Positions 5,318 through 56,621 of a DNA stretch of 59,558 nt are shown piece after piece. Source of the stretch: a virus. The stretch is from positions 1 to 59,558 of IMG/VR virus record IMGVR_UViG_3300045988_091217; one strand, written 5' to 3'. Positions within the stretch are counted from its first letter, which is position 1. The number at the start of each line of letters is the position of its first letter. The notes beneath the pieces were generated by a model. That model was given only the letters and a program-made list of their open reading frames with translations, did no database searches and was not told the origin of the DNA. The translations under genes and the position numbers were made by a program.

Positions 5318-5394
5318 CAGAGTGTAATATCAGTTGGTAGATGGCCTGCCTTGGAAGCAGGAGGTCGTAGGTTCGAGTCCTACCACTCTGACCA
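5318..5394 (+). tRNA. tRNA-Pro (anticodon UGG), CCA encoded
   Basis: Cloverleaf drawn by hand. Acceptor cagagtg/cactctg with a C1-G72 pair and A73, typical of bacterial tRNA-Pro. D-loop agttggta. Anticodon stem cctgc/gcagg with loop cTTGGaa. T-arm gtagg ttcgagt cctac. Ends acca. Confidence 0.85.
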
Positions 5395-21574: not shown

Positions 21575-21858
21575 ACCCTTATCATCCGTTCGAATCCTTC
21601 ATGCTAAGTCTAAGGCGAGATGTGAGTATCTGTTTAGCAAACGGACACTCGCAGGCTCGCCTTTATTCGCTTATAATGTTACGCAATGAGGCGGAGTTAA
21701 TACGCGAACGCCGTCGTCAGGATTTTGTTTTATACGGAACTCTGACAAAAATGATTTTTGACGCAAGCAATACTGATATTAAGCAGGATGCGTTAAAAGA
21801 GTTGAACGCAGCATTACGAGATATGCTCAATCATATAGGAACTGGTCATTATGGCTGA
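21119..21858 (+). CDS. GT-like frameshift fusion product (tail assembly chaperone), via -1 shift at about 21500
   Basis: The frame relationship (frame 2 to frame 1) fits -1 slippage. The downstream frame ends 5 nt after the tape measure ATG. Confidence 0.5.
21496..21503 (+). other. poly-A slippery site for a programmed -1 ribosomal frameshift (G to GT)
   Basis: The A8 run tta_aaa_aaa_aga lies in the gpG-like frame. The -1 frame is open from 21484 (after a TGA at 21481) through 21858. Confidence 0.6.
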
Positions 21859-24800
21859 AAATCGCTCAGTTGAATTAGAAATCCGCGCACAGGATTACAG
21901 TGGTAAAACCATCAACGACGTGCGCAAGAACATTAAGGGTCTGAAAGACGACCTGAACGAACAGGCAAAGTCGGCTGCAAAGGGTAAGGCCGACTTTAAA
22001 GCCTATGAAGCCAGTCTGAAAGGATTGGCTTCTGCTGCGACTAAACTTACCGAGTTACAAACAATGCTTGGTAAGTTGTCTAAACTCGCCGATAACGTGG
22101 CATCAAGTGCTGAACGCGCTAAAGATGCAAGCGACGCGTATGATGACTTCGCCAACAAAATCAGCGCACTCGGCGTGCCAACCAAAGCGCAGGCCGATAA
22201 ATTAGCGCGATTGGAAGCTAATCAACTCAAGGCTGCTGAAGCCGCTAAGAAACAGGCCGATGCTTATGAGCGTCAACGCCTTGAGGCTGAAGCGCATGGC
22301 TTGGCAACCAACAACATCCAACGCAGCCAAGAGGCTCTGACTAAGACCTACGAGCGCACGCTGCAAACAATCATCGACATGCGCAACGCGCAGGCCGCTC
22401 TGCAACGCCAAAATGAAATCACTTCACGCGCAGGCGACCGACGCAAAGAGTTGCAAGAGCAGATTCGTTTGCAACAAGAATCTCTGAAGTTGGCGCAACA
22501 ACAAGCAGCCGCCGAAGCAGCACGTCGACGCAATATTCAAAGTCAACGCAATCAGATAAACGCTCAACGCGTATCTATCGCGCAGCAAATTGCTGAAGCC
22601 AAAGCAGCGCAACAGGATTCCGTTTCAAAGACAGTCAGCGATGCACTGAATCCATCACGCAGCCATAAAAACGCGATGGCTGACATCACTACGTCTGTAC
22701 GCAACGCAAGCACCGCAATGCGCAAATCTACGACAGACGTTAAAGCTCTGAGCGATGCAATGGATAAACTCCGCGCGGCTCAGGAAAAACTCAAAGTCGT
22801 GGCTGGCAATATTGATTTATATCGCAAACAATCTGCTGAGTTGGCAAAACTCCGTGCTGCGTATGAATCAACCCGTAACGAACACGCCAAACTCAACGCG
22901 CGTGTGGGCAGTGGTAATGCAACGTCTCAAGAAATCGCAAGACTACGCCAGTTGGTAGCCCAATTAAACCAATCTGGTGCGGCCTTCGCGCGTCAAAAAG
23001 TTGCGGTTGAACAAACTGCACGCATTCTTGGTGAGGCTGGCGTTAACGTCGATAAACTCGCCAAAGCAGAACAACGTCTGGCCGCAAATGCAGCCCGTAC
23101 CGCCGCTGCGTCAAAAACCCTCGACGTTAAGATTAAAGAACTGTCTAAATCAACAGACTCGACAGCGGAAGCGTTTGACCGCTGGTTGAAAGGCAAGCAA
23201 GGCATTCTCGTATTCTTGCAACAGGCACGCGGCAAAGTCTTGGCTCTGAGTGCTGCACTGGGCGGCTTGTATCTGGCTCTCGATAAAGTAGTCAAAGACG
23301 GTCAGGAAGGCGTTACGCTGAAGATTCGTGCCGAAGTGTTGGCCGACAACTGGGATACAACCGCAGGTGAATTGGAGAAGTATTTCCGCGATACCGCAGA
23401 ACGCATGGGTTTGGAACTGGGTACGATTATTCAGGATTCGGCTAAACTGTTTGTGGCTGGTAAAGAGGCCAAACTTGACTCCAATACCGTGAAATACATC
23501 TTCGAACAGTTCTCTGGCTTCGGTCAGTTGATGGGCGCGGATTCCGAAACTCAATCTGGTATTTACAAAGCCCTTGAGCAAATGCTGTCTAAAACGACTG
23601 TTCAGGCTGAGGAGCTGAAAGGTCAGTTAGCCGACCGCTTGCCTGCTGCAACCAACCTGTTTGCTAAAGCATTGGGTGTGACAAACGCCGAACTCATGAC
23701 AATGATGAAAGACGGTAAAGTTCTTGCCGCCGACGTATTGCCTAAAGTGGCCGCGCTGATTGAAGAAACCTACGGCTCAAACATTGAGAAGACTCAGAAA
23801 TCTCTCGTGGCCGAACAGTCACGCCTGAACAATGCGTTTAAAGACTGGATGCGCATCATCGCCGATGCAGGTGTCATGGAGAACTTCACTACTCTTCTGC
23901 GTGAAGTGCGTGACTTCTTCCGCTCTGACGAAGCGAAGCAGTGGGCTGAAGCAATCGCAAAGGCGTTGAATGTAGCTATTGATGCGCTGCGTTGGGCGGT
24001 TAAACACGCCAACGAATTGGTTATCGCCTTCGGTGCGTTGCTGACAATCGGCGCGGCTCAAATGTTTGTAGCACTCGCCGCAACAATGCGCACGTTCGGA
24101 CTGGGTTTGAAAGCTGCTGGTACGGCTATTACAAACTTCGCCGTTAAGATGGGTTTGATTGCCAAAGTGGCACCTTCTGTTGGTACTGGCTTGGGCGGTG
24201 CTGCTGCTGCTGGTGGTCGATTGGGATTGCTCGTTGCCCCAATCTCACGCCTGATTGGTGTACTGACTTCTGCTGCTAAGATTGCCGTCGGACTGTATAA
24301 GTCATTTATCATATTCGAGGTCGTCAGCGCAATCTTCGAAGGCATCGTGCGCGGTATTAACCGATTGAGCGGTGAATCTGAAGACGCTGTATCTGGTATG
24401 CAGATGCTGTCTGACGTGCTATGGTTGATTTCAGAAGCGTTCGGCGTTATTTCCGAAGCCATCGGCGTATTGGTTAAAGGTATTGCTGATTTCGTTGCCG
24501 ATGCGGTTGAGTTGATTGGCTCATTCTTCGTAGATACAACCAAAGAATCCAACAAGAGTGCTAAAGAGTTTGAAAGCGGTTGGACTAGCGCAATTCGCTT
24601 TGTTGCTCGACTGATTGACGCATTGACCGCTACTTTTAAGTCAACATTCCTTTATCTGGGTGGCCTCGCCGATTACGTTGTTAAGAAATTCAAGGGTATT
24701 GAAGCAAGTCTCCCAGATGCCGACCAAATCAACTTGGACGTGTCGCTGGAGGTTAATGAGAATGGTGTTGAAGCCAAACTCAATAAACGCTTGGAGGAGA

Positions 24801-27370
24801 TGCGTAAAAACATCGCCGACACTGACAACGACATCACTCAAAAAACTGCGCTTGAAGCGGCAAACCGAGCCGCTAATGATGCTGCTAAAAAGGCTGAAGA
24901 AGCGAAGGCTCTCGACGAGAAGGTCAACAAGGCTCGCGAGAAGGCTGAACAGGCTCGCCAACGCGCAGAAGAAGCCGCGCTGAAACGCCTTGAGAAAGAA
25001 TTGTCTTACGAGAAGATGATTCAAAAACTCATCGATTACCGCGAAGGCCGTTTGAAAGATGACCCGATGAAGGGTTACAACAATCTCGGCGATTGGTACT
25101 TGGGTGAGCGTCAGAAGGTTAAATCGAAATACGCGGCAAACGACCCGTATGAGAATTACTCTTCAGGTGGTTCGAACGGCACGTCTTCCTACGCTGTTGA
25201 TAAACGCGCTGCTGCCGCTGCTGACTTGGCAACCAAGAAAGCTGCTGCTGACTTTACAGGTCAATGCGCGACTTACGTCAAACGTGCGCTGGCTGCTGTC
25301 GATTCTCAAGCTGCTCCGTATATCAAAGGCAATGGTAATCTGACCGCTAAGAACTTGCTGAAATACGGTAAAGGTTGGCAACAAGTACCTTATTCAGCGA
25401 ATTATGTTCCACAAAAAGGCGACGTGGTTAGCTGGGGTGCTATCAAGGGTCATCCATACGGTCATACTGCTATCCACAACGGTAAAGAGTGGGTGTCTGA
25501 TACCAAACAAGGCCGATATGGTATTGATGCCAAAACAGGCGCGTCTTCGCGTGCTTACTTGGCAGAAATGGCTCGTAATCCGAACTACAAGCCAACGATT
25601 GTGCGTTTGAGCGGTGGTAACTCCGTAACGATTACAGGCTCTACTGGTTCAGTCAGTCACAACACTGCGGCTGACAGTAAAGTGCTTGATTTCTACAAAG
25701 CCCAAGAGGAACGCTGGAAAAAAGACAAAGCCTTAACCAAACAGCAGAAAGATGACGATTCAGCATTCGACAAAGCCGAATCTTTAGTTGAGAAAGTGAC
25801 TGAAGAAGCTCGTGAAGCAATCCGCGAGATGTATAAGGCAATGGGTGTGAACGGCGTTGAGGGTTTGATTAACCGCGACCCATCAACCATGTCTGTTGAC
25901 TTGTCTGGTTCTACGCTGAACGAGATTATCGACGGCTTCAAGAACATCATTCAACCTGACAATGACAAACAGGTTAAGCAGATGCTTGAGGTTCTTACTC
26001 TGGAATATGCCCAAAGCACGAACGTTAGCCGTAAAGAAGCTCTCGCTTGGTCTAAACAGCTTGAACCGCAACTGGCTAAGTACGCTGAATTGCAAGCGCA
26101 GAAAGCTCTCGGGGAACAAGTCGATGCCTTCCTCGATTCACTTGAGAAGAAACGCAACGATATTGAGAAAGAACGCGCCAACAGCGCAGAATATCTCGGC
26201 AGTGCGGTATCGCGTGGTGTGATTACTATTGAAGAGGCTCAGGCTAAGATGTCTGAAAGCACTCTGAAATATGTTGAACGCATGACGGATGCCATTAAAA
26301 AGCTCGACGAGATAATCAATAGCGAAGCGTTCGCCAAACTGTCACCAGAACAACAAACTGCGATTCTGAATCAGCGTGAGCGACTTGGTGCGGAGCAATC
26401 GGATTATCAATCTAATCCACGCCGTCAGGCCGCGAACTTTGCCGTTGACTCAATGGCAAAACGCCTTGATGACTTCTTGCAACGCAAACGTCAGTTCGAA
26501 GAATTGCAGGAACAACTCGTCGTAAGCGGTCAGCAATCCATCACTAAGATGGAAGAGAATGTTCAAGCATACTTGAACAACATCGCTCCGCAGATGAAAG
26601 AGTTGGTTGCAGACGCTCAAAAAATCATGTCTTCTTTTGGTGATTCGGCAGCGTATGCGAACCTCACAAATCTTGTGACAAAGATGAAGGATGTTCGTAC
26701 CGAAACGACCCATAGTAAGGGTGAAGTCGAGTTGATGAATGCTGCGTATGGCGTGCTTAATGACGGAGCAATGACTGCGTTTGAAGGTATTGCCAGTGGC
26801 CTTGCTGGTATTGCAACTGGGGCTATGAGCAGTCGCGAAGCGTTTGCAAACTTGGGTCAGGCGGTGGCTCAATGGGCAGCAGAGGCTTTACGTCACATGG
26901 CGAAAGTGATTATCCAGCAACTTATCAGTCTTGCAATTCAGAAAGCCCTTCAGTCGTATTTCGGCGGTGGTGCTGATGTGCAGATGCCAGACACATCGAG
27001 CTTCGCTCAATACGCAGCCCTGTTCCATACAGGCGGTGTTGTTGGTCGCGGTAAGGCTGGTGGCAAACGGGTGAATCCGCTTGTTTTCAACGGTGCTGTA
27101 CGTTATCATAGTGGTGGTATCGCAGGACTTGCACCAAACGAAGTTCCTGCTGTTTTACAGAAAGGTGAGGAGGTAATCACTAAAAATGACCCTCGTCATA
27201 GAGATAACGCAAATTCTTCATCATCGAACCAGCAGCAGTTGACTGTTATTAACACCTTCGACCCAGTAGAGGCCATGAACCTTGCTCTGGCATCAAGCAG
27301 CGGTAGGAAAGTTCTTATCAAGGCAATGGGTCGAGAGCAACGTGCGGTTAAACGAATTGGTGGGGCTTAG
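21851..27370 (+). CDS. tail tape measure protein with embedded CHAP-like peptidase domain
   Basis: 1839 aa, Ala/Gln-rich coiled-coil. TGQCATYVKRA ... GHPYGHTAIHNG is a CHAP-like Cys/His pair, at about nt 25240-25510. Confidence 0.85.
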   Translation: MAENRSVELEIRAQDYSGKTINDVRKNIKGLKDDLNEQAKSAAKGKADFKAYEASLKGLASAATKLTELQTMLGKLSKLADNVASSAERAKDASDAYDDFANKISALGVPTKAQADKLARLEANQLKAAEAAKKQADAYERQRLEAEAHGLATNNIQRSQEALTKTYERTLQTIIDMRNAQAALQRQNEITSRAGDRRKELQEQIRLQQESLKLAQQQAAAEAARRRNIQSQRNQINAQRVSIAQQIAEAKAAQQDSVSKTVSDALNPSRSHKNAMADITTSVRNASTAMRKSTTDVKALSDAMDKLRAAQEKLKVVAGNIDLYRKQSAELAKLRAAYESTRNEHAKLNARVGSGNATSQEIARLRQLVAQLNQSGAAFARQKVAVEQTARILGEAGVNVDKLAKAEQRLAANAARTAAASKTLDVKIKELSKSTDSTAEAFDRWLKGKQGILVFLQQARGKVLALSAALGGLYLALDKVVKDGQEGVTLKIRAEVLADNWDTTAGELEKYFRDTAERMGLELGTIIQDSAKLFVAGKEAKLDSNTVKYIFEQFSGFGQLMGADSETQSGIYKALEQMLSKTTVQAEELKGQLADRLPAATNLFAKALGVTNAELMTMMKDGKVLAADVLPKVAALIEETYGSNIEKTQKSLVAEQSRLNNAFKDWMRIIADAGVMENFTTLLREVRDFFRSDEAKQWAEAIAKALNVAIDALRWAVKHANELVIAFGALLTIGAAQMFVALAATMRTFGLGLKAAGTAITNFAVKMGLIAKVAPSVGTGLGGAAAAGGRLGLLVAPISRLIGVLTSAAKIAVGLYKSFIIFEVVSAIFEGIVRGINRLSGESEDAVSGMQMLSDVLWLISEAFGVISEAIGVLVKGIADFVADAVELIGSFFVDTTKESNKSAKEFESGWTSAIRFVARLIDALTATFKSTFLYLGGLADYVVKKFKGIEASLPDADQINLDVSLEVNENGVEAKLNKRLEEMRKNIADTDNDITQKTALEAANRAANDAAKKAEEAKALDEKVNKAREKAEQARQRAEEAALKRLEKELSYEKMIQKLIDYREGRLKDDPMKGYNNLGDWYLGERQKVKSKYAANDPYENYSSGGSNGTSSYAVDKRAAAAADLATKKAAADFTGQCATYVKRALAAVDSQAAPYIKGNGNLTAKNLLKYGKGWQQVPYSANYVPQKGDVVSWGAIKGHPYGHTAIHNGKEWVSDTKQGRYGIDAKTGASSRAYLAEMARNPNYKPTIVRLSGGNSVTITGSTGSVSHNTAADSKVLDFYKAQEERWKKDKALTKQQKDDDSAFDKAESLVEKVTEEAREAIREMYKAMGVNGVEGLINRDPSTMSVDLSGSTLNEIIDGFKNIIQPDNDKQVKQMLEVLTLEYAQSTNVSRKEALAWSKQLEPQLAKYAELQAQKALGEQVDAFLDSLEKKRNDIEKERANSAEYLGSAVSRGVITIEEAQAKMSESTLKYVERMTDAIKKLDEIINSEAFAKLSPEQQTAILNQRERLGAEQSDYQSNPRRQAANFAVDSMAKRLDDFLQRKRQFEELQEQLVVSGQQSITKMEENVQAYLNNIAPQMKELVADAQKIMSSFGDSAAYANLTNLVTKMKDVRTETTHSKGEVELMNAAYGVLNDGAMTAFEGIASGLAGIATGAMSSREAFANLGQAVAQWAAEALRHMAKVIIQQLISLAIQKALQSYFGGGADVQMPDTSSFAQYAALFHTGGVVGRGKAGGKRVNPLVFNGAVRYHSGGIAGLAPNEVPAVLQKGEEVITKNDPRHRDNANSSSSNQQQLTVINTFDPVEAMNLALASSSGRKVLIKAMGREQRAVKRIGGA

Positions 27371-40528: not shown

Positions 40529-41011
40529 TTAATTTTCCTTTTGTTCATCAAGTAGTGTTAGAACGTAGGTGATTACCTCATTAATGCGCTTACTTGCTTC
40601 CCAGTCGGAGCGTTTGGCTGCGTCATGCAGTTCTGGGGTCAAGACTTCGGGGATAAGCGCAGAAAGGTCAACCACAATATCTTCCCCATCATAATCACTG
40701 TCGTTTGCCAACAACGCCTCGACGGTAATTGATACAAGGTGTCCTTCTTTGCTAAAGTAGTACAGATAACCGCTATGAGATAAATCAATATCATGCTTAT
40801 TAAGCTGGTCAACTGCCAGACTCATGCGTTCGATGCGAAGCGACATCTCGTCGATATAAGCCTCAGTGCATTCAGCATCACAACGCAGTAAGTTATCAAT
40901 AATAAATGCAGGACTTGCACCCAATTCAAACAGAATCATGCGGAGATTATCAATGCCTCGCACAATCGCATATAACTTTCTGTGTTGCTCTTCTTTTTTG
41001 TCAATATTCAT
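40529..41011 (-). CDS. acidic ~160-aa protein, paralog of 41714-42193; function unknown
   Basis: Shared blocks HSGYLYYFSKEGH/HEGHLYFFNEDEG, LLANDSDYDGE/LLSDDTIYDGE, YVLTLLDEQKEN/YVFNHMLESDED. Confidence 0.55.
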   Translation of the reverse strand: MNIDKKEEQHRKLYAIVRGIDNLRMILFELGASPAFIIDNLLRCDAECTEAYIDEMSLRIERMSLAVDQLNKHDIDLSHSGYLYYFSKEGHLVSITVEALLANDSDYDGEDIVVDLSALIPEVLTPELHDAAKRSDWEASKRINEVITYVLTLLDEQKEN

Positions 41012-41713: not shown

Positions 41714-42193
41714 CTAGTCTTCGTCTGATTCAAGCATGTGGTTAAACACATAATTAATGGACTCTGATAGCTGATAAATAGCATCCGTGTTTTTGTTTTC
41801 AATACACTCATCAAGAAGCGGCTTCAACAACTTCGGCACAATTTCTTCAACGGTCAGCACGAAGGCTTCCCCGTCATATATTGTGTCATCACTGAGCAAC
41901 TCCTCAATAGTACCCCACGAAACACCTTCGTCTTCGTTAAAGAAGTAGAGGTGTCCCTCATGGGTTATTTTGCCACCAATATCCTTCAAATGACTCAACA
42001 TGGCAGAAACGCGCTTGTAGTGGTCAAGCCTGTTGAGTACATCATCATAAACGTCGTTTAACGATTTCGTATGTAGGATTTTATGAATAAAGACACCAGT
42101 CGCACCCGTGTCAATCAGGTTGTCTGTCAAACAATACTGTTCACGATTTGCTCTAAGCAACATCTCGCGCAGTTCTTCATCGGTATACGCCAT
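41714..42193 (-). CDS. acidic ~160-aa protein, paralog of 40529-41011
   Basis: See the paralog entry. Expressed from cassette copy 1. Confidence 0.55.
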   Translation of the reverse strand: MAYTDEELREMLLRANREQYCLTDNLIDTGATGVFIHKILHTKSLNDVYDDVLNRLDHYKRVSAMLSHLKDIGGKITHEGHLYFFNEDEGVSWGTIEELLSDDTIYDGEAFVLTVEEIVPKLLKPLLDECIENKNTDAIYQLSESINYVFNHMLESDED

Positions 42194-42305
42194 TTCAATT
42201 TCCTTCGTTTGTGGTTAGTTGGTGATTGAATAGTAGCAACCCTTATAAGTATTGTCAAGCAATTAAAAAGCACTTAACCGTAAAATACAGCTAAGTGCTT
42301 CATTT
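42194..42305 (-). promoter_or_regulatory. terminator-promoter-leader cassette, copy 1
   Basis: On the minus strand: hairpin aagcacttaac/ctaagtgctt plus ttttaatt, then TTGACA-17-TACTAT, then the leader ACGAAGGAAATTGAAATG. Confidence 0.6.
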
Positions 42306-42319
42306 ATTACAAAATTAAA

Positions 42320-43597
42320 TTACTGACGGATTTTCTTTTCGCTAACAACCACTGGCTCACGAACGACAACAGTTTCTTTGACAATCACCTGCTGTGGTGC
42401 GACAACTGGTTTCGGTTTTGCGCCGAAGAAGTATGCGGCACTCAAGCCGACACCAATGTTCTTGCGAGTATCAGCGGATACGCCGCCTTTGAAGCCCCAT
42501 TTGCCGTTTTCGGTAATATGTGACGCACCGATAGCGATAGCGGCTTCGTTTTTAAACGAACCTGCGCCGACAGTGATTGCGCTTTGACCCGCTTCGTAAG
42601 GCTGCATCATCGTGCCGATGGCGATAGCACCAGCGATACCAGCGTTGCTGTCGCGTCGGTTTTTGTTGATGTCGTTACGGATTGCATCGAAATTGCCTTC
42701 AACCAGCTTGTTCAGTTCGGTGATTTTGTTACGCAAGTCACGGTCACGCAGTTTCAATTCATAAATTTGCGACTCCTGCGTTTCCATCCAACCAGAGTAT
42801 TGCTGCACCGTATGATACACATTCGTGATTTGTTCGCTGTGATAATTCAGCTTAGCTACGTTGGCACTCACTTGCGTCGCGACGGCATGGAGTTGCGAGC
42901 CGTTCACCGCGTCGGTCGATGTCTTGCTAACATTGCCAGCGGCCACGTTTTGCAACTGGCGTTCGAAGCCCTTAGAGCCGATAGACACGACGGATGTTGG
43001 ACGATGACCTGCATAGTTGCCATACGTCACGCCGTCAACCGTTGTGTTAACAACGCCTTTGAAGTCGCTGGTTGTTGAGTTGAAGCCGATGGCAACACCA
43101 CTGTAATGCTCCGTCTTGGCGTTTGTACCGACAGCCGTGCTGAAACGGGCTTCAGTCGTAGCACCACTGCCAACAGCCGTAGATTGGTCGCCGCGAGCCA
43201 TTGAAGACTGACCCAGAGCCGTGCTTTGGCCGCCAATGGCGTTGGCGTGTAGACCTAATGCGGAGGAGCTATTGCCGATTGTTGTGGTATGTGCGCCCAC
43301 AGCGGTCGAGGCTGAGCCTTCAGCTAAAGTGCCTTTACCTAATGCCGTCGTGGAGTAACCCTTAGCCCACGACGCGCTGCCGAACGCCTGTGACGTAACG
43401 CCGCTGGCCTTCGCATGTGCGCCGACAGCAGTGGAGAGGTTTGCATAGGCATGTGAGTTCATACCCACTGCGGTTGCACCCGCGCCTTCAGCGGTGACGT
43501 AGTTACCAATAGCAACCGCGCTGCGACCGACTTCAGCCATAGATAATTGGGACGACGCTACGAGTGTAACGCATAATGCAATGAGAGTTTTCTTCAT
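42320..43597 (-). CDS. YadA-like trimeric-autotransporter-type adhesin (Hep_Hag repeats, coiled-coil, YadA-like beta-anchor) with signal peptide
   Basis: MKKTLIALCVTLVASSQLSMA. Repeated GATAVG/STAVGAHA/STALGKGT units. Anchor SAITVGAGSF ... NIGVGLSAAYFF, followed by a 35-aa K/P/V-rich extension. Start at the internal ATG (43597). Confidence 0.65.
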   Translation of the reverse strand: MKKTLIALCVTLVASSQLSMAEVGRSAVAIGNYVTAEGAGATAVGMNSHAYANLSTAVGAHAKASGVTSQAFGSASWAKGYSTTALGKGTLAEGSASTAVGAHTTTIGNSSSALGLHANAIGGQSTALGQSSMARGDQSTAVGSGATTEARFSTAVGTNAKTEHYSGVAIGFNSTTSDFKGVVNTTVDGVTYGNYAGHRPTSVVSIGSKGFERQLQNVAAGNVSKTSTDAVNGSQLHAVATQVSANVAKLNYHSEQITNVYHTVQQYSGWMETQESQIYELKLRDRDLRNKITELNKLVEGNFDAIRNDINKNRRDSNAGIAGAIAIGTMMQPYEAGQSAITVGAGSFKNEAAIAIGASHITENGKWGFKGGVSADTRKNIGVGLSAAYFFGAKPKPVVAPQQVIVKETVVVREPVVVSEKKIRQ

Positions 43598-43619
43598 GGT
43601 AGAACCTTTCTTTGGTAAG

Positions 43620-43809: not shown

Positions 43810-44382
43810 TTATTCCTGTTCAGCTAAGTATTTAGTAACATGGGTAATATACTCGATTTGACGAATACAGTCTTCATAGGCGTTATGCGTTGTAGCAGAC
43901 ACTGACCGCTGTAAGCGAGGGAACATCTCGCCGATTGTTCGGAGTGAGCGGCAATCACGCACTTCCCAGAAGTTAATGAGTGTTGCTTTTGGGTCAACCA
44001 AACGATTAAAGGCGTTATTCAGGACGTCAGTATCGAACGTACCAGTGTTCCATACAAGCAAGCCTCCATCATTACGGGCAGCATCAAACAACTCCTTCAT
44101 ACGCCGCAGTGTGTCAACCAATGCTTGCTTCTCGGTAGGGTTGAGTAACTTGGCGAGATAGCCGCGATTGGTTTTGTACCACCAAGCAAGTGTGTCAGTG
44201 CTAGTGTGTGAACGTGGTTGCTCATCCAATCCATGTCTTACATGGAAGCTCTTAGAGTTGTATACCGTACCAGTTACGGGGTGAAAGCAAGCCAATGCCG
44301 TTTCCAAGATATGCGCATTTGATTGAGATGACAGTGTTTCCAAGTCAACCATGAAATGCTGTTTTGTGAGAATAGCTTTCAT
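43810..44382 (-). CDS. DEDDh 3'-5' exonuclease (DnaQ-like)
   Basis: FMVDLETLS (Exo I) and HNAYEDCIRQ (Exo III). Confidence 0.6.
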   Translation of the reverse strand: MKAILTKQHFMVDLETLSSQSNAHILETALACFHPVTGTVYNSKSFHVRHGLDEQPRSHTSTDTLAWWYKTNRGYLAKLLNPTEKQALVDTLRRMKELFDAARNDGGLLVWNTGTFDTDVLNNAFNRLVDPKATLINFWEVRDCRSLRTIGEMFPRLQRSVSATTHNAYEDCIRQIEYITHVTKYLAEQE

Positions 44383-45333: not shown

Positions 45334-45446
45334 TTTCAATTTCCTTCGTTTGTTGTCGGTTGATGAGTGAATACTATACATCCCTATAAGTATTGCCAAG
45401 CAATTAAAAAGCACTTAGCCGCAAAATAGAGCTAAGTGCTTCATTT
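45334..45446 (-). promoter_or_regulatory. terminator-promoter-leader cassette, copy 2
   Basis: Hairpin aagcacttagc/gctaagtgctt plus T-run, then TTGGCA-17-TAGTAT, then the leader. Confidence 0.6.
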
Positions 45447-45460
45447 AATAGGGTATTAAG

Positions 45461-47137
45461 TTACAAATAATTTATTGTAAGAACCCTGTTTCGTTGAATA
45501 ACCGTATTCGCCGACACGCTGTTATCAAGCCAGTTGGCACGAACTTGGTTAATCAGAGACTGCGTATAGATGTCGTTGTCGGTAAAGCTGATTTGCGCAG
45601 CGGGATTGCCGACGTAGAATCGTGATGTCGGACGGCCGAAATCAGCAGGCAAGTGCAACTGGTTATTACGGAAGAACAGTTTATCGGCAGCTTTCAACGA
45701 TGTTGCTTTAGTCACTGTATTTTTCGAAGTAACCTTAGCGATGTTGTTTTCGATGATGACGCTATGGTCATTTGCCGCATTGCTGTTCTCTTCGACGTAG
45801 AAAGGCACGCCGTCGCAGTATTCACATCCCAGTTCATTATCGGAGAATGTGAAGTCACCCAAGCCGTATTTGACAACAGGGGCTTTGGCAAACGCCGACA
45901 GGAAGGATGTTAGTCTACCATTACCTGTGATGCGGTTGCGTCGAATCTTAACGACAGGCTTGGCTTCTTGGTCGTTGTTGCGATATTCGATACACCAGTA
46001 AGAACCGCGCTGAATAGTGTCGATTTTATTCATGCCTTCAATGGTGTTGTCTTCGATAATGACTTCTGGATTAACCTGTGTAACCCAAGTTTGCCATGGC
46101 TGTTGCTTAATCTCAATGCGGATACCACTCTCGCGATAATAGTCCATATTCAAGTCAAGCTGCGCGCCTTCAGCAACGTTTTCATCGCGCTCCAGAACAA
46201 ACGTGCCGTCAAAGTGAATGCTGTTACGCACGAATCGAATGTATGCCACTGGGTATTGGCGATTCTCGTAGGCGAAACCATGCAGGCGGTTGTCGAGGAT
46301 GTTGTTCTCTTCGGCGATGAAGTCAACTGCATCATGGGAATCAAGACCCTTGCGGTAGTTGCGCTCAAGTTTGTTACCCTTAATCATGCTGTTCAAGCCG
46401 AAGTTGAGCGAGCCTGATAGAGCGGTAATACCATAGCCAGTGCCGCCGTTGGCCTCATGGCCGTTGTGATGGCAATAGTTGTTGAATGCTTGGAAGTCTT
46501 TCTGCCAAGCATACGCGATGCCAGCCACGCGGTTGTGATGCGAATGGCATTCGATGGCTCGATTACCACTGGCCTTAATAGTCGCCTCACGCAACTGGTC
46601 GAGGGTAATAGTGCCTTTCTTAAACTGCTCACCCAGAGCGACAACCTCACCGTTGTGGGAGGTAAAGAAGATACCGATGCGGTTAGAGCCTTTCGATTCT
46701 ACGCGCTGAACCAGACCGTTGGTAGTATCGACCATCATGATATTCATAACAGAACCGCGATAAGTCTCGCCTTTCCAGTGGAAAGTGCCTTTGTACTCGA
46801 TGCTGAAATCTTCCAGCGTTACGTCGGGAAGGCTGTCGACGATGACACCGCACCACTTACGCGCGTCTGTTTTGTTCGTGTTCGCGTCCCAGTTTTCAGG
46901 CTGCTCCCAGCTATAAACGATATTGGTTTTGCCCATACCAGCACCCTTGATACCACGAATACCAGTATGGCGTTCGTCCATACGGATTTGCTCATCCAGT
47001 GTGTATGTGCCTTCACCGAACTCAATGAAGGTCTTTGTTGCTGCGGCGCATTCAATCGCCGTCTTAATCGCCTGACTGTCGCTCATGCCGAGTGCTTTGA
47101 GCAGGTCGACTTTTACATATCCGATTTCACAAGACAT
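45461..47137 (-). CDS. right-handed beta-helix (pectate-lyase-fold) protein; polysaccharide depolymerase/tailspike-like
   Basis: N-terminal IKTAIECAAATKTFIEFGEGTYTL. Repeated xxDNxI rungs (IEDNTIEG, IENNIAKV, FTDNDIY, FSDNELG). Start at ATG 47137 with a CAGGAG RBS. Confidence 0.6.
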   Translation of the reverse strand: MSCEIGYVKVDLLKALGMSDSQAIKTAIECAAATKTFIEFGEGTYTLDEQIRMDERHTGIRGIKGAGMGKTNIVYSWEQPENWDANTNKTDARKWCGVIVDSLPDVTLEDFSIEYKGTFHWKGETYRGSVMNIMMVDTTNGLVQRVESKGSNRIGIFFTSHNGEVVALGEQFKKGTITLDQLREATIKASGNRAIECHSHHNRVAGIAYAWQKDFQAFNNYCHHNGHEANGGTGYGITALSGSLNFGLNSMIKGNKLERNYRKGLDSHDAVDFIAEENNILDNRLHGFAYENRQYPVAYIRFVRNSIHFDGTFVLERDENVAEGAQLDLNMDYYRESGIRIEIKQQPWQTWVTQVNPEVIIEDNTIEGMNKIDTIQRGSYWCIEYRNNDQEAKPVVKIRRNRITGNGRLTSFLSAFAKAPVVKYGLGDFTFSDNELGCEYCDGVPFYVEENSNAANDHSVIIENNIAKVTSKNTVTKATSLKAADKLFFRNNQLHLPADFGRPTSRFYVGNPAAQISFTDNDIYTQSLINQVRANWLDNSVSANTVIQRNRVLTINYL

Positions 47138-47160
47138 GTTCAACTCCTGTGTTGATAACA

Positions 47161-47197
47161 AAAAAAAACAACTCACAGTTTACACTATGAGTTGTTT
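47161..47197 (-). terminator. rho-independent terminator upstream of the beta-helix gene
   Basis: Minus strand: aacaactcatag ... ctgtgagttgtt followed by tttttttt. Confidence 0.65.
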
Positions 47198-49930: not shown

Positions 49931-50045
49931 TCAATCTTTTCCTTTGTTTGTTGTTAGTTGGTGATTAAATAATACTGATGCTATTAAGTATTGTCAAGCA
50001 ATTAAAAAGCACTTAGCCGTAAAATAGAGCTAAGTGCTTCATTTA
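49931..50045 (-). promoter_or_regulatory. terminator-promoter-leader cassette, copy 3
   Basis: Hairpin aagcacttagc/gctaagtgctt plus T-run, then TTGACA-17-TATTAT. Confidence 0.6.
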
Positions 50046-50053
50046 TCAGAGTA

Positions 50054-50755
50054 TTAAATTTTGCCGAAATCGACGTGTTTTTGCAGTTTCCGTTCCAATT
50101 CTGAAATATCCTGCGTGTTGTAGACAATCAGATAGTCATGCCACTGTCCGCCGCTGATTTTAACTGTTCCAGACTGACCGTCATCATTATCGTCAATAAT
50201 CAGTTCTGCGAACTCTTCACTGCTATGACTATTGACGGATGGAACATCGCGGTAAATACCAATTAGCAGGTCACAGATAGCAGCCTCATTTTCAAAGCGA
50301 ACGTCTGGGATAATGACATCCTTATATGAATTTTGCATAAGACGAACAAAGAAATCGTCCTTACAAAAGCGGAAATATTCAGTGCCGAGTAACTGCATAA
50401 ATTTGCGCGGTGATAACTGTTCGTATGGAGCAGGATATTCACCATGCTCCGCGTCGATAAATACATGGTAGATGTAGTCGTAAAAGATTTTCTCATCTTT
50501 GGTGATGGCCTGAACTTCTTCAGTCTTCAAGAACGGAATCAACCAGCCTTCGCGCAGTTTGTCAAAACCTTCAACACCAAAGGGCATTGGTGTTTCTTTC
50601 TTATCGCGCTCCAAGCAATCATCGCCGAAGACGAACTTGGCTGCTTCATGTAAAGGCCGTGCAAAAGATACAATCGGCATGTTTTTGAGTTTGCTTAAAA
50701 TTTGAGCAGCTGTGTCTTTACCCACGCCTGCTTTACCAACTAAACCGATAATCAT
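50054..50755 (-). CDS. deoxynucleoside monophosphate kinase (T4 gp1-like P-loop kinase)
   Basis: P-loop IGLVGKAGVGKDT. AAGGAAAA RBS. Confidence 0.55.
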   Translation of the reverse strand: MIIGLVGKAGVGKDTAAQILSKLKNMPIVSFARPLHEAAKFVFGDDCLERDKKETPMPFGVEGFDKLREGWLIPFLKTEEVQAITKDEKIFYDYIYHVFIDAEHGEYPAPYEQLSPRKFMQLLGTEYFRFCKDDFFVRLMQNSYKDVIIPDVRFENEAAICDLLIGIYRDVPSVNSHSSEEFAELIIDDNDDGQSGTVKISGGQWHDYLIVYNTQDISELERKLQKHVDFGKI

Positions 50756-54456: not shown

Positions 54457-54554
54457 GATTTAAATTTCAATTATTGCAAATATCGTTGTTTTAATTCGAA
54501 ATTAATTTGTTTTAAAGGCGATTTACTCGTATTGAATTGTGCCGCATTTATAAT

Positions 54555-54654
54555 TTTATATCGGAAGACGGCCTGTCTAGGGGCTAAAATTTTATATCGG
54601 GAGACAGCCTGTCTAGGGGTGAAAATTCTATATCGGGGGAGAGCCTGTCTAGGG
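54555..54654. promoter_or_regulatory. three tandem ~36-bp repeats, each carrying palindrome AGACAG-C-CTGTCT (plus a half-site near 54667-54690); operator/iteron array
   Basis: ttttatatcggaagacggcctgtctagggg / ttttatatcgggagacagcctgtctagggg / ttctatatcgggggagagcctgtctagggg. Confidence 0.55.
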
Positions 54655-54780
54655 GTGAATTCGCTGGTGTCTTGTCTAGTAAAATCGGGCGGTTGGTCTG
54701 TTGAACAATCAGCGGTGAAAACGAATCCGCGGCAAAAGTAATGACAAATGACTGATAATTAAAAGCTATAAACTGATAGC

Positions 54781-54802: not shown

Positions 54803-54950
54803 GACAAATTCTTTTTGTTGTACTATTTACGCGCGTTCATTAATAGGCGATTTTCACCGAAAATCGCTATCTGATTTAAATAATTTTTAAATTAATTTCT
54901 TTTATATTCAAGGATTTAGGCTTAAATCTCAAATATTTTTAAAATAAGAC

Positions 54951-54978
54951 TTGTCAAAATTTTAAAAAGGCTTATAAT
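54951..54978 (+). promoter_or_regulatory. strong sigma70-like promoter P-early-1 (TTGTCA-16-TATAAT)
   Basis: cttgtcaaaattttaaaaaggcttataat. Near-identical copy at 56594. Confidence 0.6.
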
Positions 54979-56144: not shown

Positions 56145-56564
56145 ATGGCTATCGACTACAAATTACCCGAAAAACCATTTCCTTTTATGTTTCAGCTTGA
56201 ACAGGCTTTTTACTCAAAACGAAATATTATCTGTCATAAAAGCCGTGAAAATACGCTTGCAACATTTAGGGAATATAGCTATTTGCAAGAAGTAGCACCC
56301 GATGAAAACGCCGTTTCATGGTTTGAGAAATTAGGGCGCGGTAAGTATTTATCCGACAGGTTTAAAGCCGCTAATAATGCCATTGATACCGATATTGATA
56401 ATTATGTATTTTTTGAAATTACGGAATCAGGCAAAACGGCGGTTTATTACAACAAAAGATTAAAAGATAGAGATAAAGAACATAGCGTAAAAACCTATGA
56501 CAAAGTAAGCGAATTAGCTGAAGAAATTCAAGAATTAATTTATAGTAAATTCAACATGTTATAA
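56145..56564 (+). CDS. early-region protein, unknown
   Basis: AAGAAGG RBS. Confidence 0.45.
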   Translation: MAIDYKLPEKPFPFMFQLEQAFYSKRNIICHKSRENTLATFREYSYLQEVAPDENAVSWFEKLGRGKYLSDRFKAANNAIDTDIDNYVFFEITESGKTAVYYNKRLKDRDKEHSVKTYDKVSELAEEIQELIYSKFNML

Positions 56565-56593
56565 TTAAATCTCAAATATTTTAATTATAATAC

Positions 56594-56621
56594 TTGTCAA
56601 GTTTTTAAAAAGGCGTATAAT
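56594..56621 (+). promoter_or_regulatory. strong sigma70-like promoter P-early-2 (TTGTCA-16-TATAAT), duplicate of 54951
   Basis: cttgtcaagtttttaaaaaggcgtataat. The upstream aaatctcaaatatttta is also shared. Confidence 0.6.

Follow-up and report, generated by a model that had tools for sequence, protein, structure and literature searches.

Why would a phage carry the gene for a bacterial surface adhesin, and why would that adhesin continue past the point at which proteins of its family normally end? Both questions are raised by a minus-strand gene of IMG/VR virus record IMGVR_UViG_3300045988_091217, whose 59,558 nucleotides (referred to below as the window) make up a phage genome of siphovirus type from human metagenomes. 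The gene encodes a predicted trimeric autotransporter adhesin (TAA) with 34 residues beyond its membrane anchor. We found that this C-terminal tail is conserved and that its motif recurs on lipoproteins encoded next to TAA genes in Neisseria. On balance, we consider it probable that the phage makes an outer-membrane adhesin in lytic infection, and that the fused periplasmic tail takes over the envelope-coupling or stabilising role of a separate helper protein.

Architecture and conservation of the adhesin

Judged by its sequence, the window adhesin is a genuine YadA-type trimeric autotransporter that carries every TAA hallmark. Pfam searches matched YadA_head/Hep_Hag (PF05658) over six stretches (47.7 bits, cut-off 25), YadA_stalk (PF05662) at residues 214-248 (39.6 bits, cut-off 28.4) and YadA_anchor (PF03895) at residues 331-389 (48.2 bits, cut-off 22.7). 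Regions of the NCBIfam models EmaA, Ata, YadA and BimA were also matched, none of them reaching its full-length cut-off. By inspection, the N terminus is a predicted Sec-type signal peptide, with a basic n-region (MKK) and a hydrophobic core of 11 residues before an S-M-A cleavage site, and it is not a lipobox. The anchor, this signal peptide and a passenger made of head repeats, neck and coiled-coil stalk correspond to the type Vc arrangement. The one departure from the family is at the C terminus, where TAAs stop at the last barrel strand with an aromatic residue and this protein runs on for 34 more residues. The parts of the gene are as follows.

42320-43597, minus: TAA gene, an open reading frame (ORF) of 425 amino acids plus stop
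43605-43613, minus: Shine-Dalgarno-like AAAGAAAGG, 7 nt before the ATG at 43597 (read from the sequence)
43535-43597, minus: signal peptide, residues 1-21, MKKTLIALCVTLVASSQLSMA followed by EV, assigned by inspection and kept in homologues
42998-43534, minus: YadA-like head of left-handed beta-roll repeats, residues ~22-200, from PF05658, structure prediction and a UspA1 head match
42608-42997, minus: neck and coiled-coil stalk, residues ~201-330, from PF05662 and a predicted helix; length varies among homologues
42425-42607, minus: YadA-type membrane anchor (PF03895), pore helix and four beta-strands, residues 331-391, ending ...GVGLSAAYFF
42323-42424, minus: C-terminal tail, predicted to be periplasmic, G392-Q425, GAKPKPVVAPQQVIVKETVVVREPVVVSEKKIRQ, 34 residues after ...SAAYFF

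Structure prediction agreed with this layout. The AlphaFold2 (AF2) monomer, built on 19 homologues, had low overall confidence (mean predicted local distance difference test, pLDDT, 57). In it, residues 30-170 form a beta-roll head (pLDDT 77-89), residues 256-328 a helix and residues 339-384 four strands, these last at low confidence. Foldseek against the Protein Data Bank (PDB) ranked the membrane anchors of Hia, AtaA and YadA (TM-scores to the target 0.51-0.70) and the UspA1 head at the top, and it returned no significant phage-fibre match, with tailspikes appearing only at E > 2. By sequence, the closest PDB match of the anchor was the AtaA transmembrane domain (9vnj_A, E 2e-6), in which D3601 aligns with E363 of the phage protein. 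The signal peptide, Hep_Hag repeats, coiled-coil stalk and four-strand anchor ending ...GVGLSAAYFF had all been proposed from the sequence in the original prediction and were borne out: the signal peptide by inspection of the N terminus, the three domains by the hidden Markov model (HMM) search that it had called for, and the anchor additionally by the modelled strands. The tail that it described past the last strand is also present, although its length is 34 residues and not 35.

We also observed that the tail is retained throughout the family. A protein search recovered 939 relatives at E <= 1e-10, and all 120 of those listed keep the tail, down to 44% identity; among them is a protein 100% identical to the window adhesin (P0001), found on ~60-kb metagenomic contigs. 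Even in sequences of only 44-47% identity, five residues (E408, R413, E414, I423 and R424) do not vary, and the tail consensus consists of a P/K/A-rich linker, [VI][VI][KR]E-[VI]3-RE-[VP], 5-9 variable residues and [KR]IR[QG]-COOH. By inspection, this is a proline-flanked, V/I-rich (V-V-R-E-V)n pattern that looks strand-like rather than heptad-like. In codon alignments of 11 members of the 60-kb phage family, the ratio of non-synonymous to synonymous substitution (dN/dS) in the tail was 0.092 at dS 0.51, similar to that of the head (0.076) and to be compared with 0.13 in the signal peptide, 0.15 in the stalk and 0.018 in the anchor. The tail is under purifying selection. Because it is kept in every listed homologue and its dN/dS is low, we regard it as functional and not as noise.

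Bacterial relatives of the adhesin lack such an extension. We inspected 23 loci, from Neisseria (32-40% identity), then Aggregatibacter, Veillonella, Burkholderia and others; in all 20 with a readable C terminus, the end of the barrel is the end of the protein (GYQW, GFHF or GYSF before the stop). A 2026 survey of TAAs found periplasmic extensions in ~12% of these proteins, nearly all outside Proteobacteria, and counted them in 47 of 323 Neisseria and 43 of 406 Haemophilus TAAs, leaving the origin of these proteobacterial extensions open (10.64898/2026.01.22.700529). The view that an extension is atypical for an autotransporter of this kind is therefore supported.

The tail motif on TpgA-like lipoproteins

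An initial profile, built from the phage tails together with the last strand, was insensitive: it missed even the phage family itself and is not usable as a census. It nevertheless gave four matches, three of which were short ORFs ending ...PEGCGPKK.P.VVREVIIREVAPAPA.RIRQ and a stop codon. These three proved to be pieces of one gene type lying just downstream of a short TAA and split by masked runs of N. Such runs, at L085 2068-2401 and L087 2554-3025, cut the Neisseria lipoprotein gene into two called ORFs, which is why the tail is seen in databases as orphan 'proteins' of 34-66 amino acids (P0122-P0125). Intact copies are present in Neisseria mucosa (L003 8980-9447, 155 amino acids) and Neisseria weixii (L002 9088-9549, 153 amino acids). 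Both products are lipoproteins (MKLS...LAAC) whose genes lie directly downstream of a TAA gene, and the N. mucosa TAA is the best bacterial relative of the phage adhesin (34% identity over residues 71-389, E 7e-43).

The body of these lipoproteins has a BamE fold (PF04355, 65 bits). Among NCBIfam models it matches TpgA best, and among PDB structures the N-domain of TpgA (9vnj_B, E 3.7e-15). Homologues at 60-75% identity, including Pasteurellaceae PlpD and proteins of Uruburuella and N. montereyensis, carry an OmpA_C domain past a conserved cysteine; the Neisseria lipoproteins of 151-159 amino acids have the tail motif at that position, and OmpA_C itself is absent from them. In the characterised system, the N-domain of TpgA docks onto the AtaA barrel from the periplasmic side, forming an A3B3 complex, and the OmpA_C domain binds peptidoglycan; ~91% of TpgA-like genes are found downstream of a TAA gene (PMC12523085).

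The link between phage and Neisseria tails was recovered with a profile that contained phage sequences only. This tail HMM was run against 20,356 ORFs and proteins, comprising the six-frame ORFs of 80 bacterial TAA loci and 119 TpgA-like proteins; 16 tail-type lipoproteins ranked at the top (best E 9e-7), and everything else scored E 0.9 or above. An exhaustive HMMER scan of 1.84 billion representative proteins gave five matches at E <= 1e-3, namely two phage-TAA representatives and three lipoprotein fragments. The profile used in that scan included lipoprotein tails, so its result speaks for the restriction of the motif and not for an independent discovery of the link. In the searches run, the tail motif is thus restricted to two TAA-linked contexts, phage TAAs and Neisseria TpgA-like lipoproteins. 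The earlier reading of the gene had not recognised the tail as a conserved module that also occurs on a TAA-associated lipoprotein.

The two contexts are complementary: in Neisseria, the TAA lacks the tail and its helper has it; in the phage, the TAA has the tail and there is no helper gene. Nowhere in the window did we find a BamE-like region, a TpgA-like gene or a second tail motif, and the phage adhesin gave no match to OmpA_C (PF00691). Two other ideas about the tail were considered and rejected. An Lpp-like covalent link through a C-terminal lysine does not fit, as no conserved lysine lies near the C terminus and the lipoprotein tails end A-A-R-I-R-Q; and a remnant of an OmpA_C linker or first strand was dismissed when alignments with OmpA_C-type homologues revealed no similarity.

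Two further observations concern the bacterial loci. The N. mucosa cassette of TAA and tail-bearing lipoprotein lies directly upstream of a 559-amino-acid ORF (L003 9736-11415) that by inspection resembles a PilF/PilB-type type IV pilus ATPase, so two adhesion systems appear to be adjacent there. The PlpD-type OmpA_C homologues of Pasteurellaceae (P0141, P0159, P0187 and P0238) have a short extension of their own past OmpA_C, ending ...GPAPLY(R/Q)K, which is unrelated to the phage and Neisseria tail.

Spread among phages and genomic setting

Relatives of the window were recruited from IMG/VR through the exonuclease next to the adhesin (67-81% identity). All ten that cover the site carry the adhesin at the same position (76-98% identity), with some small neighbouring genes gained or lost within this ~60-kb family. 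Among the 120 listed of the 939 homologues, those for which a context or source name exists sit on phage-like contigs, and no bacterial flanks were found in the seven contexts examined (±10 kb). Distant tail-bearing homologues (44-60% identity) are carried by a 155-kb myovirus with a sheath, jumbo phages of 205 kb and 234 kb, a T4-like phage (Gp5_OB, T4 baseplate, topoisomerase II) and a 63-kb contig with a T7/N4-type RNA polymerase and DNA_pol_A. From these comparisons, the adhesin gene appears as one exchanged among at least six unrelated phage types, the window type and five others. In the two other phage types checked in full, the adhesin is the sole gene common to the window and the surrounding ±10 kb, which indicates that it moves as a single gene without a phage-encoded tail partner. 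In other phages too, it sits among small non-structural genes. YadA-anchor genes of N4-like phages have been read as putative virulence auxiliary metabolic genes (AMGs), with no tail or helper link described (PMC10654107).

Within the window, the adhesin gene belongs to a minus-strand non-structural block, on the strand opposite to the terminase-to-tail genes. The elements that delimit its transcription unit are listed here.

42267-42301, minus: terminator-like hairpin with a 16-bp stem and then a T-run, 19 nt past the adhesin stop
42193-42323, minus: 131-nt repeat unit D1, made of the hairpin, a TTGACA-17-TACTAT promoter (42258-42230) and a ribosome-binding site (RBS); operon boundary
45334-45464, minus: upstream D1 copy with promoter-like TTGGCA-17-TAGTAT (45399-45371); probable operon start
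49932-50062, minus: third D1 copy, from repeat comparison

The hairpin after the adhesin gene folds at -23.7 kcal/mol (z = -6.9) and is conserved in three copies; the D1 copies are 81-84% identical to the reference copy, and within the non-structural block the unit seems to lie at the borders between operons. The cassette terminator claimed for the gene is therefore real, but it is part of a repeated boundary element and not private to the adhesin. The D1 copy at 45.4 kb makes the adhesin the last gene of an operon that probably starts there, with six genes: small ORFs, the exonuclease (43810-44382), a 62-amino-acid ORF and the adhesin. The adhesin ATG lies 22 nt past the stop codon of the 62-amino-acid ORF, and because of this short distance the two are probably co-transcribed. 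Given this operon and the synteny in all ten relatives, the description of the region as an accessory block does not hold. A shorter repeat of 27 nt, in RBS regions, occurs in five copies.

Elsewhere in the genome, plus-strand genes encode primase, exonuclease, DNA polymerase, helicase, large terminase, portal, protease, major capsid, tape measure and tail proteins; the minus-strand block encodes endolysin, ribonucleotide reductase (RNR) small subunit, exonuclease, dUTPase, thymidylate synthase (ThyA) and deoxynucleoside monophosphate (dNMP) kinase. Its own polymerase, primase, helicase, RNR, ThyA, dUTPase and dNMP kinase are, as a predicted gene set, typical of a virulent phage. Among the ORFs scanned, a survey that was not exhaustive for small repressor-like ORFs, neither an integrase nor a lysogeny module was found. 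The counterparts of the terminase in ~58-61-kb phages of Pseudomonas, Serratia, Pectobacterium, Aeromonas and Klebsiella share 51-58% identity with it. A 7-kb segment around the adhesin gene had no Megablast match among cultured phages, tblastn gave only distant matches to other phage or prophage TAAs, and no cultured phage of this kind came to light in a search of the literature.

Several other features of the window were recorded. Just upstream of the adhesin operon, minus-strand 45461-47176 encodes a 571-amino-acid protein with a weak right-handed beta-helix match (PF13229, 23.4 bits, below cut-off); it is 85-98% conserved in the phage family and could be a depolymerase-like enzyme encoded apart from the tail module. 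Two minus-strand paralogues of 160 and 159 amino acids (40529-41011 and 41714-42193; 29% identity over 100 residues, E 6e-15), one of them directly downstream of the adhesin's D1 unit, have no PHROG match at E <= 0.001. Three tandem 36-nt repeats resembling TATAATTTTATATCGGAAGACGGCCTGTCTAGGGGC lie at 54549-54656, and two 89-nt repeats with promoter-like TTGTCAA...TATAAT lie at 54890-54978 and 56533-56621; the repeats at 54-58 kb fall in an AT-rich stretch (GC 35-39%) that may be an early-promoter or origin region. The 1839-amino-acid tape measure (21851-27370) contains an endolysin-like segment at residues 1159-1229 (phrog_8781), and a tRNA-Pro (TGG) gene lies at 5318-5394 between the exonuclease and polymerase genes.

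Candidate functions and comparison with known systems

On export, topology, the binding target of the tail, the host genus and what the phage gains, we infer the following. A host-type (sigma-70-like) promoter would drive the adhesin in the infected cell during lytic growth, Sec would export the protein and, by analogy with the TAA family, the beta-barrel assembly machinery would insert a trimeric barrel of 12 strands, from which the YadA-like head and short stalk would then project at the cell surface. As each monomer contributes four strands, the C terminus would be periplasmic, and three 34-residue tails would hang below the barrel. A fusion of adhesin and helper tail would be self-sufficient: with no need of a host helper, it would couple or stabilise the anchor in the envelope, through the wall or through a partner associated with it. 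We favour such a fusion because, in the searches run, the motif otherwise occurs only on TpgA-like lipoproteins, at the OmpA_C position, and we favour coupling because of this domain replacement and because the fixed, charged C terminus resembles a recognition element. The virulent-type genome, the host-type promoter and the non-structural block suggest that the adhesin would appear on infected cells. The benefit would lie in altering the infected cell's surface, most likely so that the cell adheres or aggregates and stays beside fresh hosts; this fits better than receptor-specific exclusion, as the head is strongly conserved and the carriers are unlikely to share a receptor. The closest TAA and the lipoprotein motif suggest a Neisseria host.

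Several points weigh against this account. That the motif replaces OmpA_C is a positional argument only, and the transfer may have run from lipoprotein to TAA or from TAA to lipoprotein. The tail has no detectable similarity to a known peptidoglycan-binding domain (in Pfam, only the three YadA domains are significant in the whole protein), and it is disordered in the AF2 monomers of both the adhesin and the Neisseria lipoprotein (pLDDT 30-40). The acidic residue through which AtaA contacts TpgA has its counterpart here (E363), but distant family members differ at this position, a variation that would be compatible with reduced dependence on a helper. As to the host, Neisseria DNA uptake sequences and Pasteurellaceae uptake signal sequences are essentially missing from the phage loci, compared with 11-25 per 17 kb in control loci, and the GC content of the TAA-carrying phages spans 33% to 50%.

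The tail might also act as a periplasmic clamp for trimerisation or stability, like the short domains of Veillonella TAAs, rather than as an envelope tether. We rate this as rather unlikely, yet it is a serious rival because short periplasmic domains do stabilise Veillonella TAAs: in V. parvula, TAAs depend on them for stability and they do not seem to bind peptidoglycan, and the few proteobacterial extensions have been classed as of coiled-coil type (10.64898/2026.01.22.700529). The AtaA-TpgA complex is A3B3 (PMC12523085), so that both contexts of the motif, three tails under a barrel and helper lipoproteins bound 3:3, gather three copies on a three-fold axis, and the tail is short with no recognisable peptidoglycan-binding fold. 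A clamp is harder to reconcile with the strand-like rather than heptad-like pattern, with the place of the lipoprotein motif, where a peptidoglycan-binding domain would stand, and with the strict [KR]IR[QG]-COOH end, which suggests partner recognition and contrasts with the poorly conserved final residues of the Veillonella short domains. For the periplasmic tail, we also considered a mimic of the TonB box that would engage TonB and thereby energise the adhesin or keep TonB occupied, and we find it most improbable. The consensus TonB box is E-T-x-V-V; ETVVV in the window tail (KETVVVRE) resembles it by inspection, and a predicted extended strand would suit beta-augmentation. However, the threonine is absent from most family members and from all lipoprotein tails (EVVREVVVREV), and the conserved C-terminal IRQ has no TonB-box counterpart.

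Other explanations concern the adhesin as a whole. It could serve superinfection exclusion or receptor masking, preventing other phages, or progeny, from adsorbing to the infected cell or to its debris, much as the phage envelope proteins Llp of T5 and Cor block receptors. A predicted surface protein in a minus-strand replication and nucleotide-metabolism block with a host-type promoter would suit such a role, which we nevertheless consider unlikely: at least six unrelated phage types that would hardly share one receptor keep the adhesin, and the head (dN/dS 0.076) bears no sign of an arms race, although neither point is decisive. The lysogenic-conversion-like function suggested in the original prediction would make the protein an Eib-like virulence factor, expressed from a prophage for serum resistance or adhesion to host tissue. 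Sandt and Hill (2000-2001) reportedly described the Eib proteins of E. coli as prophage-encoded TAAs, and the YadA-anchor genes of N4-like phages have been interpreted along similar lines (PMC10654107). We judge this very unlikely for the window, with its full replication and nucleotide-metabolism set and no integrase or lysogeny module among the ORFs scanned; homologues lie on phage-sized or larger phage contigs, none of the seven contexts has bacterial flanks, and the other carriers are T4-like, jumbo and N4/T7-like phages. Least credible of all is a virion fibre or receptor-binding protein that reuses TAA-like repeats. One PHROG whose C-terminal region is similar bears the label 'tail/adhesin' (phrog_17426, E 4.8e-10), but the protein has a signal peptide and a complete YadA anchor, its gene lies opposite the structural module among replication and nucleotide-metabolism genes and is likewise non-structural in other phages, and Foldseek returned outer-membrane anchors and no significant fibre fold. 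The cell-surface role first proposed for it, in preference to one in the virion, is supported by these features together with the three Pfam domains.

The reading that we prefer, a lytic-phase adhesin with a fused helper tail, can be extended tentatively. The tail might be a previously unrecognised short periplasmic coupling module of TAAs, acting as a wall tether, partner tether or three-fold clamp and placed on either the helper or the adhesin; unrelated virulent phages might exchange the gene for adhesin plus tail to make infected cells sticky, so that the burst stays near new hosts in a biofilm. This wider proposal is possible, though we would not expect all of it to hold. The TAA family and phage-borne TAAs were known already. 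What is new is that the tail motif is conserved, that a TpgA-like helper also carries it, at the place of OmpA_C, and that this self-contained adhesin is spread across unrelated lytic-type phages. These observations offer a concrete and testable origin and role for one proteobacterial TAA extension, a class whose origin the 2026 survey left open, and they single out a peptide of ~25 residues as a candidate for binding to the wall or to a partner. As a natural case of domain fusion, they also argue for a need of adhesin anchors to be coupled on the periplasmic side. A syntenic adhesin in a lytic-type family, exchanged among at least six phage types, suggests that surface remodelling matters in lytic infection and not only in lysogeny, in human-associated communities.

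Like the type Vc adhesins YadA, Hia and AtaA, the phage protein has a signal peptide, head repeats, a neck and stalk and a four-strand anchor; unlike them, it continues past the barrel with a conserved 34-residue tail and is encoded by a virulent-type phage and not by a bacterial chromosome. It shares with the Eib proteins and the YadA_anchor genes of N4-like phages its place on a phage genome, although Eib proteins come from temperate phages and are not known to extend past the barrel. One tail-bearing homologue lies on the N4/T7-like contig, consistent with the N4-like report, in which the Pfam domain alone was noted and neither a tail, a TpgA link nor spread across phages (PMC10654107). TpgA of Acinetobacter sp. 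Tol 5 (PDB 9vnj) links a TAA anchor to the cell wall (PMC12523085). The phage adhesin ends in the same motif as the Neisseria homologues of TpgA, which are BamE-only proteins encoded downstream of its closest bacterial TAA; it differs from TpgA in having no BamE-like domain, only the C-terminal motif being shared, and canonical TpgA has OmpA_C instead. Among the TAAs of Terrabacteria, those of Veillonella carry SLH or coiled-coil extensions and those of Streptobacillus carry OmpA extensions (PMC5491611; 10.64898/2026.01.22.700529). As in these proteins, the sequence after the phage anchor is predicted to be periplasmic and may contribute to adhesin stability or wall binding, but in place of SLH, OmpA or long coiled-coil domains it consists of a strand-like V/R/E motif of 34-38 residues with a fixed C terminus, on a TAA of proteobacterial type.

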